From the NCBI RefSeq assembly GCF_024223415.1, contig NZ_CP100501.1: a stretch of 64,000 nt of DNA. One strand, written 5' to 3'. Of the stretch, positions 43,207-50,598 are shown piece by piece. This DNA is from Escherichia coli. GTDB taxonomy: Bacteria > Pseudomonadota > Gammaproteobacteria > Enterobacterales > Enterobacteriaceae. The notes below the pieces were generated by a model that saw only the letters and a list, made by a program, of their open reading frames with translations, was not told where the DNA came from and searched no databases. A program made the translations under genes and the position numbers. Numbering within the stretch: position 1 is the stretch's first letter; each line of letters opens with the position of its first letter.

Positions 43207-43396
43207 ATGTGTTCTTGCCCCCTTATTTCCAGACAGGGGTTGTATCTTAAGTTAATGTTACCCGCTGACGTCGATATTCTCGCGGAGAGCGATAACCCAA
43301 CGCACTGTGCGGATGGTTTTCATTGTAATGTTCGATCGCCACTGCAAGATTATGCAATGCCGTTCTTACATTCGGTTTCGGCATGAACGCGATGTA
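43207..43396. mobile_element. Fragment (about 190 bp) of the IS3-family element seen at 6411-7740
   Basis: About 95% identical to 6415-6600 (IS end plus orfB 3' end). Confidence 0.8.
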
Positions 43397-43451
43397 GTCT
43401 TCCTTGGGGTCCGCTTGGAAAACGGAAAATATCCCACGCTAAGACTATTTT

Positions 43452-44042
43452 CTATACAGTAACAGTTTGCTGTTTCGCTCTAACTCTCAGAATTGTTTGC
43501 CGTGTGGTTCGGAATTCCCTGGCAATAGCACTTATACTTGCTCCAGACTTAATGTGTTCGAGTACCTTCTGTTTTTGTTCTTCATTTAATACCGGTGGGC
43601 GACCAAAACGTTTTCCTGCATCCCGTGCTCTTGCTATCCCTGAATAAGTTCGTTCAAGTAAAAGATCTCGTTCAAATTCAGCGACCGCTGAAATCACTTG
43701 CATTGTCATTTTTCCTGCCGGACTGGTCAGATCAACACCACCTAATGCCAGGCAATGTACCCTGATGCCAGATTCGGTCAGTTGCTCCACTGTTTTCCTG
43801 ATATCCATTGCATTACGACCGAGGCGATCCAGTTTTGTGACTATCAATACATCGCCACTTTCCAGACGATCAAGCAACCGGTTAAAACCTGGACGTTCAC
43901 TGGCTGCTACTGATCCACTAATTTGTTCTTCGATTATTCGTTGGGGTCTGACGTTAAAACCCGCGCTTTCGATTTCCCGACGTTGATTTTCGGTCGTCTG
44001 TTCCAGAGTGGAAACCCGACAATAGGCAAAAATTCGAGACAT
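43452..44042 (-). CDS. Serine recombinase (resolvase/invertase family)
   Basis: N-terminal catalytic motif [10 protein letters not shown]-terminal HTH; 196 aa. Confidence 0.85.
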
Positions 44043-44069
44043 AGTGAGATCTTCTGTACGAAATGGGTG

Positions 44070-44180
44070 TACATATTATAATGCATGTCCGAAAGTAATT
44101 TCGCTGACTTTCGGATATATCTGTTTAACAATGTCCGAAACCGGTCGATTTCGGACACCAAAACCACTGTTGTCCCGCCA
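44070..44180. promoter_or_regulatory. res-like recombination site upstream of the serine recombinase gene
   Basis: Inverted repeats TGTCCGAAA..TTTCGGATA and TGTCCGAAACCGGTCGATTTCGGACA resembling resolvase binding half-sites. Confidence 0.5.
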
Positions 44181-44254
44181 TTCTGGCGATTCCTGAAAGC
44201 CCTTTGGCTAAAAAATAGTCTTAACATGGTTTATTTTCCGAATTCCAAACTGAC

Positions 44255-44462
44255 CCCGCTAACGCGGAGATACGTCCCGACTTCGGGTAAACCCTCGTCG
44301 GGACCACTCCGACCGCGCACAGAAGCTCTCTCATGGCTGAAAGCGGGTATGGCTTAGCAGGGCTGGGGATGGGTAAGGTGAAATCTATCAATCAGTACCG
44401 GCTTACGCCGGGCTTCGGCGGTTTTACTCCTGTGCCATATGCAACAACGGAGTGCCGCCTTA
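44255..44462. repeat. About 205-bp structured direct repeat, copy B
   Basis: See copy A at 1487-1692. Confidence 0.85.
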
Positions 44463-44542
44463 CATGCGCTGACGCGCATTATTTGCCTTGTTCCGTCTGA
44501 AACTAATCACTATGATTAAATATGATTAACAACTAATCGGGT

Positions 44543-44827
44543 ATGCAAATGAAAAACAATACCGCACAGGCAACAAAAGTCATTACCGCGCATGTGCCAT
44601 TACCAATGGCTGATAAAGTCGACCAGATGGCCGCCAGACTGGAACGCTCCCGGGGCTGGGTTATCAAACAGGCGCTTTCTGCATGGCTTGCCCAGGAGGA
44701 GGAGCGTAATCGCCTGACGCTGGAAGCCCTGGACGATGTGAAATCCGGACAGGTTATCGACCATCAGGCTGTACAGGCCTGGGCGGACAGCCTCAGTACT
44801 GACAATCCGTTACCGGTGCCACGCTGA
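44543..44827 (+). CDS. RHH (CopG/ParD-like) antitoxin
   Basis: 94 aa; upstream of and contiguous with a ParE/RelE-fold toxin gene. Confidence 0.7.
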   Translation: MQMKNNTAQATKVITAHVPLPMADKVDQMAARLERSRGWVIKQALSAWLAQEEERNRLTLEALDDVKSGQVIDHQAVQAWADSLSTDNPLPVPR

Positions 44828-45102
44828 TGGAACTGAAGTGGACCAGTAAGGCGCTTTCTGATTTGGCGCGGTTATATGATTTTCTGGTGCTGGCCAGTAA
44901 ACCTGCGGCCACCAGAACGGTGCAGTCCCTGACACAGGCACCGGTCATTCTGTTAACTCATCCACGTATGGGAGAACAGTTGTTTCAGTTTGAACCCAGG
45001 GAGGTCAGACGGATTTTTGCTGGCGAGTACGAAATCCGTTACGAACTTAATGGCCAGACTATTTATGTATTGCGCCTGTGGCACACACGAGAAAACAGGT
45101 AG
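44827..45102 (+). CDS. ParE/RelE-superfamily toxin
   Basis: 91 aa; YEIRYELNGQTIYVLRLWHTRE is typical of ParE/RelE C-termini. Confidence 0.75.
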   Translation: MELKWTSKALSDLARLYDFLVLASKPAATRTVQSLTQAPVILLTHPRMGEQLFQFEPREVRRIFAGEYEIRYELNGQTIYVLRLWHTRENR

Positions 45103-45207
45103 ATTGTGTGTGGGGACAACTTAACATAGCCTGCAGATATTAATTCTGGAACATTATTATCAGGCCAGATATTTTTCATTCCATTAAATAATCTTGTAGG
45201 AGATAAA

Positions 45208-45447
45208 ATGAATTACGATGAAATAACGAAAATTACCGCTGAACGTATTAGCGACTACATGACCGAAGCAGTTAATACAGACTCTATAGCCGTTGCGGAA
45301 ATGTTTCATAACGCTGCATGGGGAGTGCGAACATTGTGGTTTGAACTCGTCACAAAAATAGATATGGATATACATAAAAAGAACAGGTATGCGAGTTATG
45401 ATCTTAGAAGGAAAATCGAAATACAGCATGAAGAGTTTCACGTATAG
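45208..45447 (+). CDS. Hypothetical small protein (79 aa)
   Basis: Strong RBS AGGAGA 7 nt before ATG; low GC; no recognisable motif. Confidence 0.45.
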
Positions 45448-45609
45448 GAAATTGAAAAACTAAGCGATACCACTGTCCGCGTCTTATGCCTCGTGCGGTA
45501 AGCTGTTTTTCACATCACGCCGGTGTTTTTTCTCTCTGCGTGGTCGGTTTTTATACTGCGGATGGGGTTTTTTATCCTTTCCCCGGATTGCTGACACACT
45601 TACCCTGTA

Positions 45610-46800
45610 TCAGGCCGGCACATACCTCAGCAGACTGATATCCCGCGCGTTTTTCTTCAGCCCTGATACATTCAGCCCCGCAAGGGCCCGGCGGTATACC
45701 ATCCGGCCGCCACACAGCACGCATTCGAACGGGTCACGACTCAGGAACTGTTTCACCATTTGTGCATAGCACACTTTCGCCACCGGTTCCGGTTTATCCA
45801 TCCCCAGAGCTCGGTACACCTGCGGCAGCTTCTCTCCACACCCCCGGTTGGCAAGGAACCCGAAGTACCTCACCATCTTAAAAAACTTCTCCGGGATGTG
45901 CTGTTTCATCCTCGCGACCAGCTCACGCTGCGTCAGCGTTTCCGTCGCTGTCTCTCCCGTTTTGTGGTCCAGGTAACGGAAGCTCAGGCTCGCCCCTCCG
46001 TTGTAATGTGCCAGCCGGGAAGCCGCTATTGGTGGCTTCTTCAGATAACGACCCAGGTAGCGTGCCGTATTCCGCCCGCCGGCCGTCTTCTTCGACATGT
46101 ACACATGCCAGTATTTTCCGCCGGCTTTCAGCACCAGGCTTCTCCACTGTGATTCCGTCGTGATATGTGACAACGACTCCGGCATCGCCATCCCCTCTGA
46201 CCACGCTTTCAGAAGCAACTGCCGTATATTCCACATCCACCGCGAACGCATTGCGTCTTTCAGGAAGCTCAGCTTTTTCCACTGACCGTGCTTATTCAGC
46301 CCCCCGCAGGTTACTGACACATGTACATGCGGATGCCAGTTGAGACGACGGCCATATGTGTGGATGGCGCAGAAGATACCGGGTTCCAGCCCCCGTTTTC
46401 GGGCGGCATACAGCAGCCAACGGTTGCTTTCGAACACCGGCCACAGCGTGTCCGGCAGGGTGAAGACCAGGTGTACCCAGTCGCAGTCAGGAAGACGATT
46501 CAGCTGTGTCGCTGTCCACAGGTCTGTGGCCTTTTTTCCGCAGGACGGGCAGGCACGGCTGCCACATGAGTTAGTGACGTATCTGACGTGGGGACAGTCA
46601 GGTTTATCGCAGTTGTATTCCTTCACGCCCAGTATCCGCGTGCCGCAGGCCAGCATTTTGGTGACAGCCTCAACCTCGATATCGCGCAGACCGCCCGCAT
46701 CCAGGAAGGACGTCCAGCACTGGTTGGCTGTGAACAGGCGTTTCAGCGGACGGGGCTGAAAATCACCACCACTTCGGGTCATCCATCCTGCACGCTCCAT
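45610..46800 (-). CDS. IS91-family rolling-circle (HUH, Y2) transposase; start uncertain
   Basis: Zinc-binding Cys cluster (CDKPDCPHVRYV..CGSRACPSCGKK), HUH motif HPHVHV, tyrosine motif YLGRYLKKPP. Confidence 0.8.
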   Translation of the reverse strand: MERAGWMTRSGGDFQPRPLKRLFTANQCWTSFLDAGGLRDIEVEAVTKMLACGTRILGVKEYNCDKPDCPHVRYVTNSCGSRACPSCGKKATDLWTATQLNRLPDCDWVHLVFTLPDTLWPVFESNRWLLYAARKRGLEPGIFCAIHTYGRRLNWHPHVHVSVTCGGLNKHGQWKKLSFLKDAMRSRWMWNIRQLLLKAWSEGMAMPESLSHITTESQWRSLVLKAGGKYWHVYMSKKTAGGRNTARYLGRYLKKPPIAASRLAHYNGGASLSFRYLDHKTGETATETLTQRELVARMKQHIPEKFFKMVRYFGFLANRGCGEKLPQVYRALGMDKPEPVAKVCYAQMVKQFLSRDPFECVLCGGRMVYRRALAGLNVSGLKKNARDISLLRYVPA

Positions 46801-47139
46801 CTGATAATGTTCTGACAGGTAAAAATAATATCCCGCATGATTTGTGTGCTCATGATTTCTGATAATATCAGATATGGTTTTATCATCAATGATGAAAATC
46901 ATATCTGATATGATTTTATGTGAATTGCTTAATTAGCATATCATTTGCCCGTTTCCCGCCGTGCAGATCCGGTTTCCGGCGAAGTCGGATCGACCTAATC
47001 TTTGTTTCTGATATGAACATCTCGGAGAGGTGTAAGCAATGGTATAAACGAAATGTATTATGTATCTGCATCACAGCATGCGGGCACATTTTGCGGCAGG
47101 ATATGAATCCCCCCGGAATAACTGGCAAAGGACAGATAA

Positions 47140-49234
47140 ATGGACATTGAAATACGCCACTGCAATAACATCGTACGAGCACATATCACCCTCACTGCCG
47201 ATAAACTGAACATTAAGTTTGCGCCAAATGGTACTGGAAAAAGTACGCTGTCACGGGCCATAAGCTGTGCGGCGCGGGACGACATTCAGGGACTACAGGC
47301 ACTGATGCCCTTCCGGCTGCGCGGAGAAAACCCCGATAGCACCGGGCCCATTGTCATCGGTGCTGACGGGATTGGGGACGTGATGTGCTTCAACGAGGAG
47401 TACGTCAGTCAGTTTACGTTCCAACCGGACGAGCTCATCAGTGACAGCTTTAATATTCTTATCCGCAATCAAGCCCATGCGGAAAGAGAGCGTGAAATAG
47501 AAGAAATGACGCAAAAGATCCGGGCTGTTTTCACGGATCACACTGAGCTGAACTCTCTGATAGACCATCTACAGGAACTCAGTAATGCTTTCAAATCAAC
47601 CAGTTCCGGGATTTCACGTTCTTCAACCGGCATGAGAGGTCTGTCAGGCGGAAATAAAATACACCACATTCCGGCTGGTCTTGAGAACTATCAACCCTAC
47701 ATCCGCAGTGAACGCCGCGTGGAATGGATTGACTGGCAGACAAAGGGACTCGAGTTTTCGCCCCTTTCGGATGGCTGCTGTCCGTTCTGTACCGGTGATA
47801 TCACGGGAAAGGAAGCACAAATTCGCCAAGTCAGAGAGGAATACGATAAATCCACCATTAAAAATGACGGAGAGCGCCAGAGAACGCCTTCTGGCCATTA
47901 CTATGCTTCAGAACGGTCCGGAAGCCGAACATATCGAGTACCTAGTGGCGTTGAAACGCCAGACCGATACGCTGACAGAGAAACTCACTGCGCTGAGAGG
48001 CCTGAATGTTTTCAGCCTGCAGGAACAGCAGAACGTTCGGGAGGTGCTCACTGCCAGGTTGATTGACCTGCAGTTCTTCCCTGATCTGCAATCCGAACTC
48101 ATGCAGGGGATCACCGACAGACTGAACGCGGCCCTTATGGACCTGATAAACCTTGCCGGACCGCTGCAGGGAAAAATTAACCGGCACCGGGACAGCATGA
48201 TCCGGCTGATCGCACAGCACAAAACAAACATCAATAATTTCCTCACTTATGCAGGCTATAAATACAGGGTGGATATAGCCGGCGAGGGAGAGCAGAGAAA
48301 ACTCAGGCTACGACACATAGATTTTGACGGGTACGTCAGCGGCGGTAGCCAGCATCTCAGCTATGGAGAACGGAACGCCTTTGCGATTGTGTTATTCATG
48401 TATGAATGCCTGTCAAAAAACCCGGGACTGATTATCCTTGATGATCCCATATCTTCTTTTGATAAAAACAAGAAGTTTGCCATTCTTGAAATGCTGTTCA
48501 GACGTGCAAGTGGTGAATGCCTGAAGAACCGGACTGTACTTATGCTGACGCATGACGTGGAGCCTGTGATTGACACGCTGAAGTCAGTCAGAAGGTTGTT
48601 CAGTAATCAGGTGACCGCCTCCTGCCTGCGCCTGTCTGCTGGAGTCATAGAAGAATTACCTGTTAACGACGGCGATATCATGACATTCATGCAGATCTGC
48701 AAATCCATCACCGCGTCAGCAGACTGTGAGGAGATCATTAAGCTCATCTATCTTCGTCGCTACTTTGAAATCGTTGACGAACGTGGTGATGCTTATCAGC
48801 TTCTATCCAATCTATTCCATCGACGCGTCGCCCCGCTGGATTATCGCGAGCCTGCCGCTGCGGGCTCGGGCTATCCCAAAATGGCTCCTGAGAAAATTCA
48901 GCAGGCCTTGCGGGATATCCGGGAGTATGTGGACAGTTTTGATTACCCGCGACTTCAGGCTCTCGTCAGCAGCCCAGATGAAATAAAAAACCTGTACCGT
49001 CGCTGTCGTAACGGCTATGAAAAACTGCAGGTATTCCGTTTACTGGAACTGGATCAGGACCATCCGGTAATACGAAAATTCGTTAACGAAACGTACCACA
49101 TTGAAAATGAGTTCATCTGTCAACTAGATCCGTCCAGATTCGATCTCATCCCGGAGTACGTGATTATGGAATGTGACAAGTTCATCGCCCTGCCACCGGC
49201 AGCAAACCAGAGCTCGGTTGCCCGTATCGCTTGA
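47140..49234 (+). CDS. Rad50-like ABC ATPase with CxxC hook and extra C-terminal domain (RloC/PrrC-like candidate); reading frame shifts near 47860-47870
   Basis: Walker A FAPNGTGKSTL, long coiled-coil insert with CPFC, signature LSYGERN, Walker B LIILDDP, H-loop LMLTHD, then about 215 aa; N part in frame 1, C part in frame 2. Confidence 0.55.
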
Positions 49235-49333
49235 GCCACTGTTTTTGCCGCCGGAAGATAGGCTTTAGCTCCCTGATAGTCTGATCTTCGAAGATACCCT
49301 ACAGTTTAGGACCGCTTACTGTAGATATCTGTT

Positions 49334-49360
49334 AAAACAGCCCGTATACGGGCTGTTTCT
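49334..49360. terminator. Bidirectional intrinsic terminator between convergent genes
   Basis: AAAACAGCCCG-TATA-CGGGCTGTTTCTT hairpin with flanking A and T runs. Confidence 0.7.
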
Positions 49361-49395
49361 TGGTGCCCTTATCTCCTGACTTTGAAAAGAGTGTC

Positions 49396-49812
49396 TTACT
49401 TCACCCAGTCTTCCAGCACCAGGTCAGGCACTCGCTCAAATTCTCTTGTATTATTCGTTACCAGTATCGCCCCGGCGGCGATGGCGTGCCCGGCAATCGC
49501 CGTGTCGTTCGGGCCGATCGGCGTCCCGGCCAGCCGCAGTGCCACTTTAATCTTCGTGGTGGCGTCTACTGCGGCGCGATCCCAGGGCAGGATGGCATCG
49601 AGGCGGGCGCAGAATTCATCGACCAGTTGGACGTGACGTGGTGAGGCCTTTGGGCCGGTAGCCCCGAAGCGCATTTCAGAGTAGGTGATGGCCGAGACCA
49701 CTATACGGTGGCCGCGTAGCACCGCCTGCTCCAGACGCTTCAGGACGGCTTCTGGCTGTTCACGCATGATGAACGAGCAGATACAGGTATCAAGCATATA
49801 AGTCTTGTTCAC
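49396..49812 (-). CDS. vapC: PIN-domain toxin VapC
   Basis: 138 aa; N-terminal YMLDTCIC with acidic residue and PIN-like spacing; overlaps the antitoxin gene. Confidence 0.85.
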   Translation of the reverse strand: MNKTYMLDTCICSFIMREQPEAVLKRLEQAVLRGHRIVVSAITYSEMRFGATGPKASPRHVQLVDEFCARLDAILPWDRAAVDATTKIKVALRLAGTPIGPNDTAIAGHAIAAGAILVTNNTREFERVPDLVLEDWVK

Positions 49813-50039
49813 AGGTTAAATCGCCCTTCGTCGCTGACAACATCCTCGCGCTCCGCCATAAAATCTGGATCGGCTTTTTCGTACTCTAGGAATGATCCCC
49901 AGGTTGGCCGGACGGGGCGCAGGATGATGCTGTCCCCTTCCCGGACGATCTCGAGCTCGCTCACCCCCTCAAAATCCAGATCACGAGGCAGACGGATGGC
50001 GCGGTTGTTGCCATTTTTAAATATCGATACGGTTCTCAT
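49809..50039 (-). CDS. vapB: AbrB/SpoVT-type antitoxin VapB
   Basis: 76 aa; MRTVSIFKNGNNRAIRLPRD typical of VapB/MazE swapped-hairpin antitoxins. Confidence 0.85.
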   Translation of the reverse strand: MRTVSIFKNGNNRAIRLPRDLDFEGVSELEIVREGDSIILRPVRPTWGSFLEYEKADPDFMAEREDVVSDEGRFNL

Positions 50040-50049
50040 GTTCTTTCTC

Positions 50050-50180
50050 TCCCGAGCATATGGATATGTGAAACATATCCGGAATATTCAAAGCACCGGG
50101 TGTGTGCATATGTTTAGTATAGGCAGATGTGTGGCATATGTATAGCGGTAGCATATGTAGATGCCATGCATATGTTTAGC
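50050..50180. promoter_or_regulatory. Array of GCATATG(T) repeats upstream of vapBC (operator or iteron-like)
   Basis: At least five copies of the palindromic CATATG core within about 130 bp, plus inverted repeat GGATATGTGAAACATATCC. Confidence 0.5.
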
Positions 50181-50598
50181 ATATCCCTATTTCTTTCTTT
50201 TTTATCGGAGATCCGAAAAAAGGTTGTTCAGGATCTTCCTCTCCCCCCACACAACGCCACCTCCTGTAAGCACAACATGTGGTGCCGGATTCAGCTGCTG
50301 ATGACACTATATGTTGTGTCATCTCCCTGACCTGTGATGCGTCGCGCAGGGGCGGAAAACAGCGATATGATGATTTCCTCAGCGTGGTACACTTCCGGAA
50401 AGTTGTGATATTCTGGAAAGTCGGATCTGACGGAAACGGCTCTCCGGTAATTTAACGGCGTGGTTATATGGATGCTTGTTATCATGGTGATGATGATAAC
50501 GGCATGATGTTATCAGACGGCGTGACGGTAAGGGCAGTGATGATGGATGACGTTATCGCATGACCGTCCCTGCCCGGAAAAGAAAAAAGGAGTCACCC

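Follow-up and report, generated by a model that had tools for sequence, protein, structure and literature searches.

A candidate RloC-like hooked ATPase, common on IncF-type plasmids, whose gene is split by an apparent 44-bp deletion in an Escherichia coli sequence

RloC, a Rad50-like anticodon nuclease with a zinc hook (Davidov and Kaufmann 2008, PMC2610378), cuts transfer RNA (tRNA) by excising the wobble nucleotide and is regulated by zinc, ATP and DNA, and PrrC, from the EcoprrI locus, is a tRNA-Lys anticodon nuclease. Here we describe a disrupted gene at positions 47140-49234 of a 64,000-nucleotide stretch of Escherichia coli DNA (the window; RefSeq assembly GCF_024223415.1, contig NZ_CP100501.1), whose intact counterparts share a general layout with RloC. 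A sequence-only reading of the window had proposed a frameshifted, Rad50-like ATPase of the RloC/PrrC type as a candidate defence gene. We think, at slightly better than even confidence, that what the window carries is a copy, dead or mis-assembled, of a candidate RloC-like, single-protein abortive-infection ribonuclease (RNase) that is widespread on IncF-type plasmids. That the intact protein would work like RloC is a claim made by analogy, which we hold with moderate confidence; the same analogy, together with weak evidence from folds and motifs, leads us to infer a putative RNase activity, an RNA target, a trigger and protection against phage.

The intact product is a protein of 712 amino acids (aa), with no annotation beyond AAA family ATPase (WP_000350635.1). 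In its repaired or intact form, the window allele itself being split, it matched the PADLOC model PDLC04889 of the PDC-S06 label with E = 3e-286, residues 1-698 aligning with profile positions 1-688 of 693, and divergent family members matched this model as well. Pfam returned only partial AAA_13 matches, one in each ATPase half (6e-9 and 1e-4), in agreement with the domain assignment that the sequence-only reading had put forward for checking. The NCBIfam search yielded only sub-threshold ABC-transporter matches, and the PDB sequence search nothing beyond weakly matching ABC ATPases. Alignment of profiles with RloC-like proteins (hhalign) gave E = 1e-24 over residues 417-497. The family is very well conserved, with 3,643 matches in our search, and full-length relatives (about 700 aa long, about 55% identical) occur in Alphaproteobacteria, Desulfobulbaceae, Kiritimatiellae, Cyanobacteria and other groups.

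The AF2 model of the protein (pLDDT 78) has an ABC head broken up by long helices, and Foldseek with the full model retrieved the heads of SMC, Rad50, RecN and RecF proteins, those of Rad50 and SMC including coiled-coil stubs. Residue conservation was assessed over 34 diverse relatives at 28-53% identity; all parts of the gene lie on the + strand. In the Walker A motif or P-loop, APNGTGKST (aa 28-36; 47221-47247), N30 and K34 are invariant, and G31 and G33 nearly so. The helical insert carries CPFC (aa 214-217; 47779-47790), a zinc-hook-like CxxC flanked by helices in the AF2 model, with both C214 and C217 invariant. The ABC signature LSYGERN (aa 421-427; 48356-48376), invariant at L421, S422 and N427, lies in the stretch covered by Pfam AAA_13, by the PADLOC PrrC model and by the alignment with RloC-like proteins. 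Walker B (LIILDDP; 48428-48448) continues into the D-loop as LIILDDPISSFD (aa 445-456; 48428-48463), an AAA_13-type DDPxSSxD in which D449, D450, P451, S453, S454 and D456 are invariant; its PrrC counterpart is FIDDPVSSLD. The H-loop LTHD (aa 484-487; 48545-48556) has an invariant H486. The protein thus consists of an AAA_13-type ABC head, a helical insert that divides the head and bears the invariant CxxC, and a private C-terminal domain. All five motifs named in the sequence-only reading are present, and the Rad50/RloC-like layout that it described is borne out by the split head, the invariant CxxC, the fold matches to SMC, Rad50, RecN and RecF and the partial AAA_13 matches.

In the window, this gene is interrupted. 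Alignment with the plasmid pAPEC-O1-ColBM (NC_009837), where an intact gene of 2139 bp encodes WP_000350635.1, showed that 44 bp (CCTGACCGCTATCATCAGACTGGTGGAAAACCTCGGTAATTACC) are absent directly after 47864. This position is the last A of an A5 run, and the homologous frame switches right after it. The 5' part (47140-47864, frame a), corresponding to codons 1-242 of the 712-codon ancestral open reading frame (ORF), is 100% identical to the reference (L001:6001-6725, L001 being our piece of pAPEC-O1-ColBM). The junction falls between 47864 and 47865 (A5 run and junction, 47860-47866); the deletion costs codons 243-256 (LTAIIRLVENLGNY) and shifts the frame, and frame a then runs through an out-of-frame tail of 66 unrelated residues (47865-48066) to a stop at 48064-48066. 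The 3' part (47865-49234, frame b) starts with the second base of codon 257 and runs through codon 712 to the stop. It equals L001:6770-8139 bar one single-nucleotide polymorphism (SNP), C to T at 49181 (L696F), the sole other difference between the window gene and its counterpart in pAPEC-O1-ColBM. Two overlapping ORFs in different frames remain, 47140-48066 (308 aa) and 47681-49234. Because Walker A and the hook end up on one side of the deletion and the signature, Walker B, the H-loop and the effector domain on the other, no functional protein is expected from the window allele. The junction also creates an ATG (47864-47866) in frame b that would start a 456-aa product, Met plus residues 258-712; expression from it is doubtful, as no Shine-Dalgarno-like sequence lies ahead of it. 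Around the gene, promoter and terminator scans gave sites no more numerous than in shuffled sequence. The sequence-only reading had located the frame switch at this A5 run, which was right as to place; a change in the length of the run, however, is not its cause.

A 50-nucleotide probe centred on the junction, with flanks too short to seed on intact copies, had zero matches in 72,556 plasmids and 5,426 complete E. coli genomes. The 2095-bp region as a megablast query matched 786 plasmid records and 724 of the 5,426 genomes, its best matches consisting of two aligned pieces that together span 2139 bp. When the intact gene was the query, a near-full-length copy was found in 659 of the 786 plasmid records, and all 33 near-full-length rows sampled over the whole ranking covered 2131-2139 bp in a single aligned piece. 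The carrier plasmid records are from Escherichia, Salmonella, Klebsiella and Shigella. Of these carriers, about 16% have no near-full-length copy: some records (H117-H122) hold 5'-truncated remnants that start at gene positions 693, 1249, 1446, 1589 and 1839 (for two, the annotation lists IS66 or IS600 genes where the match lies), and the remaining non-full records also include small fragments. One full-length plasmid copy spans 2138 bp but has no annotated gene. The gene is therefore frequently lost from carrier plasmids.

Since the junction is private and only one further SNP is present, the gene is either a pseudogene of private, recent origin or wrongly assembled. As to the lesion, the chief competing explanation is an artefact of sequencing or assembly, in which case the true plasmid would carry the intact 2139-bp gene. 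A junction unique among all the records searched, an otherwise pristine gene with a single SNP and a 44-bp loss without clean microhomology all speak for an artefact. Homopolymer-type errors, however, do not remove 44 bp of complex sequence, and disrupted alleles also arise naturally, as the 5' truncations by IS66 or IS600 and the unannotated 2138-bp copy attest; we consider an artefact unlikely, though with a real chance of being correct. The reference deletion site (L001:6725-6775) contains a 7-bp direct repeat, ACCTGAC, with its copies 42 bp apart. Slippage between these copies was rejected as the mechanism, because it would drop 42 bp in frame, yet 44 bp are gone. Of the three fates that the sequence-only reading had allowed for the gene (inactivated, mis-sequenced or recoded), inactivation or mis-assembly stands, and recoding does not, as the gene is a single ORF in relatives.

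The C-terminal domain (aa 497-712, about 215 aa; 48584-49231) sets the family apart. In the model it consists of a beta-hairpin of two strands followed by about ten helices, and it is possibly HEPN-like: its fold matches are weak but enriched for HEPN RNases. Pfam gave no match to this domain, even at E = 10 for the window-type sequence, and the best 50 Foldseek matches in AFDB50 were all family members, with no outside link. A profile of the domain found 530 proteins among 1.84 billion representative proteins; in the 150 matches listed, every full-length protein (about 640-850 aa) has the domain at about residues 430-730, and the rest are shorter fragments. Among those matches, the domain was seen solely in fusion with this ATPase. 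Five of its residues are invariant in the 34 sequences (R554, K643, H668, N671 and P686), and R555, E558, R648, K661 (33 K, 1 R), E665, E670, Q676 and C693 are nearly so.

Two conserved motifs in this domain are candidate equivalents of catalytic motifs in the anticodon nucleases. The first, R554-R555-x-x-E558 (LRRYFE; 48755-48769), has R554 in all 34 sequences and, at position 558, 29 Glu, 4 Asp and 1 Asn; it may correspond to R320-x3-E324 of PrrC. The second, K661-F-V-N-E-T-Y-H668-I-E-N671 (49076-49108), is a candidate counterpart of RFINKYSH in RloC-like proteins and of RIINFTSH356 in PrrC. It falls in the RKFVNETYHIENE segment (at about 49073-49111) that the sequence-only reading had singled out in a further domain of about 215 aa. 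Both the domain and the segment are present, and RKFVNETYH within it is the best-conserved part of the domain. Set against the R-x4-6-H motif of HEPN RNases, the family has [K33/R1]661-x6-H668 with the His invariant, and residue 660 is variable (Arg in the window protein), giving R-x7-H in some members. From these features we infer that the domain may be an enlarged HEPN-like, metal-independent RNase, with R-x3-E and K-x6-H, an insert of about 75 residues between them, and the invariant K643 and N671.

To place these motifs, we compared the family with PrrC and with RloC-like controls. PrrC genes were recovered by a genome scan for KYGDSNKSFSY, the published PrrC LARP peptide (PMC1950546); the recovered PrrC matched the PADLOC PrrC model with E = 1.8e-147, and its close relatives are named 'anticodon nuclease' at source. 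The RloC-like controls, taken from IMG/VR viral contigs (L072-L087), are 610-810 aa long and have R-x3-E followed after about 40 residues by S-H; in the full-length ones, CxxC lies at about residue 280-299. The triad of the RloC C-terminal anticodon nuclease has been defined as Arg-x3-Glu-x36-52-His, often with Ser before the His (PMC2610378). The paired motifs are LLR320NLYE324 and R349IINFTSH356 in PrrC (31 residues from Glu to His), [AS]R[KR]L[LVM]E and [YR][RK]FIN[KE]YSH in the RloC-like proteins (about 40 residues), and LR554RxxE558 and K661F[IV]NETYH668 in the PDLC04889-type family (109 residues), and their order is identical in the three groups. In the last group, H668 is preceded by Tyr or Phe, position 575 (x16 from E558) is His or Lys, and among the 34 sequences no His is conserved 36-52 residues past E558.

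Model matches drew the same boundary. The RloC-like controls gave full-length matches to six other PDC-S06 models, and one of them matched the PrrC model through its C-terminal domain (6.6e-15); to PDLC04889 they matched in the ATPase only. The PrrC model in turn reached the 712-aa protein with E = 3.3e-4 over residues 421-473 only. No RloC model was among the PADLOC matches of the PrrC or RloC-like proteins, and since the latter match PDC-S06 models over their full length, that label largely covers RloC-like proteins. PDC-S06 is in practice an RloC-like clan in which PDLC04889 is an outlier with its own C-terminal domain. Membership in PrrC or RloC, as the sequence-only reading had suggested, did not hold up: effector-domain homology was not detected and the Arg-x3-Glu-x36-52-His spacing is absent. 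Judged by sequence, the protein belongs to neither family, and the effector domain is where membership fails.

By analogy with RloC, the hooked ATPase would keep the C-terminal RNase silent. A phage-linked cue, which might be DNA damage or DNA ends, lost restriction activity or a phage protein, would let the RNase go; once freed, it would cut tRNA or another RNA, translation would halt and the infection would abort. More tentatively, and with less than even confidence, the PDLC04889 family may be a distinct single-protein abortive-infection enzyme, a Rad50-like hooked ATPase with an atypical, enlarged HEPN-like domain whose RNA target and trigger are unlike those of RloC and PrrC. As about 10% of complete E. 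coli genomes contain intact copies, borne by IncF plasmids of the virulence and resistance kind, the enzyme would then be a frequent plasmid-encoded factor in phage sensitivity or in plasmid competition.

Several observations weigh against a dead or mis-assembled copy of an RloC-like RNase. The canonical HEPN R-x4-6-H carries Lys in place of Arg, and the 109 residues between R-x3-E and His compare with 36-52 in the RloC definition. In hhalign, the C-terminal domain was not significantly similar to that of PrrC (P = 0.12, with the R-x3-E pairing as the best local alignment) or to those of the RloC-like proteins (P = 0.09, with the His-motif pairing as the best), whereas the positive control, PrrC against RloC-like C-terminal domains, gave 6e-4. 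A profile spliced by removal of residues 576-649 aligned both motifs collinearly at P = 0.0037, a post hoc value, the best that 18 splices gave. Neither the PrrC model nor the RloC-like PDC-S06 models match the WP_000350635.1 protein outside the ATPase. On IncF plasmids the gene has no restriction-modification partner; in the literature searched, we found no functional study of the family (WP_000350635, PDC-S06), and PDC-S06 is not among the systems tested in PMC11514479. Finally, the deletion, with no clean microhomology, could be an assembly error, leaving the gene intact in the real plasmid.

Much of this also bears on the main rival for function, a non-catalytic C-terminal domain. The protein would then be a defence-type ABC ATPase whose C-terminal domain serves as a sensor or in oligomerisation or partner binding, and it would act through DNA binding or bridging, ATP consumption or an effector of the host or plasmid recruited in trans. 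Such a role is compatible with the failure of Pfam and PDB sequence searches to match the domain, with profile comparisons to the PrrC and RloC nuclease domains that fall short of significance, with Lys for Arg in R-x4-6-H, and with one homologue that is trailed by SbcD and SbcC-like genes. The invariant residues, however, are mostly polar (R554, K643, H668 and N671, with E670 nearly invariant), as is typical of a catalytic site; the domain was seen fused to this ATPase only, the gene often stands alone without a conserved partner, and the motifs mirror the catalytic motifs of RloC and PrrC in the same order. A non-nuclease domain seems rather unlikely to us, and an RloC-like RNase is the reading we retain.

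The genomic surroundings of relatives are consistent with defence. In a Kiritimatiellae genome, a relative is flanked by hsdS and hsdR in a type I restriction-modification system, the place that prrC takes in its own locus. On a metagenomic contig, a relative inside a type III-like restriction-modification operon comes after SNF2, DUF4391, methylase, RhuM and Res genes and ahead of SbcD and SbcC-like genes, and in a Desulfobulbaceae genome the relative follows methylase and ResIII genes, overlapping the ResIII end by 4 bp, with an integrase next. An Enterobacter hormaechei contig with plasmid-like gene content has a relative amid Mrr, Abi_2, OLD-TOPRIM and PIN/MazE genes, and in Serratia one lies near a TIR-domain gene. 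Several metagenome contigs sharing one locus show the relative as a solitary insertion among metabolic genes. Full-length relatives occur on 23 IMG/VR viral contigs, and the family matches phrog_2801 with E = 4.5e-104; tblastn against 50,697 phage records gave no match. PDC systems were nominated through guilt-by-embedding, and their authors call them untested candidates (bioRxiv 10.1101/2024.01.29.577857); ABC-HEPN proteins have been described from prophages and, alongside RhuM, from restriction-modification operons (Anantharaman et al. 2013, PMC3710099). The contexts of the relatives match both the nomination by embedding and the ABC-HEPN description. The proposal of a defence candidate thus gains from the full-length PDC-S06 match and from relatives in restriction-modification operons and prophage contigs.

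Alternatively, the intact protein could be a plasmid housekeeping factor of the SMC/Rad50 kind, serving DNA repair, partition or stability and not immunity. Its head resembles those of SMC, Rad50, RecN and RecF, and on IncF plasmids the gene lies amid plasmid stability modules (ParE-like, VapBC). Yet no Mre11/SbcD-type nuclease gene adjoins it in the window or in most other contexts; its distribution over phyla is patchy and horizontally transferred (about 55% identity); relatives recur in restriction-modification operons, defence islands and prophage contigs; and frequent truncation in plasmids marks the gene as dispensable. We regard a housekeeping role as very improbable.

Hardly credible is the last alternative, that programmed ribosomal frameshifting or transcriptional slippage at the A5 run joins the two frames, or that they are two independently functional genes: the A5 run at the junction and the in-frame ATG at 47864 would suit it, but related plasmids carry a single uninterrupted ORF and not the two conserved genes that the sequence-only reading had considered, searches of 72,556 plasmid records and 5,426 complete E. 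coli genomes did not turn up the junction, the frame difference is the lost 44 bp with its 14 conserved codons, the new ATG lacks a Shine-Dalgarno-like sequence, and an ABC head requires Walker A and the signature/Walker B lobes within one fold. Relatives are single-ORF and keep neither a slippery site nor a two-frame arrangement, which excludes recoding and the two-gene idea; a slip in the A5 run was likewise ruled out by the 44-bp deletion relative to pAPEC-O1-ColBM and by a junction seen nowhere else.

Around the gene, from 41139 to 50482, the window is 99.2-99.9% collinear with the annotated region of pAPEC-O1-ColBM, and the alignment upstream of the gene holds one gap. The collinear annotation places a ribbon-helix-helix antitoxin with a RelE/ParE-family toxin at 44543-45102 (+), an IS91-family transposase at 45610-46902 (-) and a VapC and VapB toxin-antitoxin pair at 49396-50039 (-), which agrees with the ParDE-like, VapBC and IS91-family neighbours named in the sequence-only reading. 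The transposase ORF encodes 430 aa in the window; its RefSeq counterpart in pAPEC-O1-ColBM is a coding sequence of 1172 bp, a length that three does not divide. Between the ParE-like gene and IS91, a 403-bp stretch (45038-45440), which includes most of a 79-aa ORF (45208-45447), has a second, 98.8% identical copy in pAPEC-O1-ColBM at L001:13732-14134, about 9.8 kb off and past the colicin B immunity gene; this repeat may be IS91-associated or recombination-prone. Collinearity stops at 50482, where an integrase and a ParA/ParM-type region like that of pE24377A-type plasmids follow in place of the colicin M/B cluster. Because collinearity with pAPEC-O1-ColBM gives way at 50483 to this pE24377A-like region, the backbone is mosaic. 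Elsewhere in the window, Rfam ALIL pseudoknots were matched at 19142-19258 and 38132-38218 (+; 116 and 64 bits). ALIL pseudoknots are frameshift-stimulating elements of IS3-family insertion sequences, so the two matches point to at least two IS3-family copies in the window.

The lesion itself is ordinary; more interesting is the gene that it breaks, which was matched in 724 of the 5,426 complete genomes and 786 plasmid records. Its abundance on IncF plasmids makes the family a sensible choice for experiments. Were the product an RloC-like RNase whose effector domain is new, the gene would join the immune genes that plasmids commonly carry, with bearing on phage therapy and on IncF ecology. In that case, the PDC-S06 label would unite RloC-like proteins and at least one family whose C-terminal domain differs, and the family would offer a natural variant for studying how hooked ABC ATPases gate HEPN-type nucleases.

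Close known systems include Lamassu LmuB and Wadjet JetC, immune ATPases of the Rad50/SbcC-like and SMC-like kind. They share the head fold, the coiled-coil insert and the CxxC hook, and the PADLOC LmuB model matched the protein with E = 7.5e-14. In contrast to them, the window protein has no separate nuclease or kleisin gene, its coiled coil is much shorter, and its effector-like domain is fused in cis. HEPN RNases and ABC-HEPN fusions (PMC3710099) resemble it in the helical C-terminal domain on an SbcC/Rad50-like ATPase and in their association with RhuM operons and prophages; the PDLC04889-type family, however, is missing the strict R-x4-6-H, and its domain is about twice the minimal HEPN size. 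Within PADLOC PDC-S06, a single-gene phage defence candidate (Payne et al., bioRxiv 10.1101/2024.01.29.577857), the protein is a full-length match to one of 13 models, PDLC04889, under a heterogeneous candidate label of which at least six other models represent RloC-like proteins with another C-terminal domain.

PrrC and RloC are further close comparisons. With PrrC the protein has in common NGTGK[ST], DDP[IV]SS[FL]D and R-x3-E with R/K-x6-H, and one distant relative sits, like PrrC, between hsdS and hsdR. PrrC, however, is about 396 aa long without hook or coiled coil, whereas the 712-aa protein has the insert; the window protein also has no counterpart of KYGDSNKSFSY, the peptide of PrrC for tRNA recognition, and its gene lies outside a restriction-modification locus, among toxin-antitoxin modules and IS91. 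Compared with RloC (PMC2610378), the C-terminal domain of the PDLC04889-type family has no detectable homology in profile searches with hidden Markov models; its His lies 109 residues past the Glu, Lys stands for the motif Arg and Tyr or Phe for the Ser that precedes the His, it adds conserved K643, R648 and N671, and the coiled coil of the family is shorter. In common with RloC, the protein is a single polypeptide of about 700-800 aa with an AAA_13-type head (Walker A, an LSxGE-like signature, DDPxSSxD and an H-loop) that is split by a helical insert bearing a conserved CxxC, a putative zinc hook. Both are mostly stand-alone and at times restriction-modification-linked, RloC-like proteins share the PADLOC label PDC-S06 with the family, and in both the effector domain opens with L-R-[RK]-x-x-E and carries [RK]-F-I-N-x-x-x-H.

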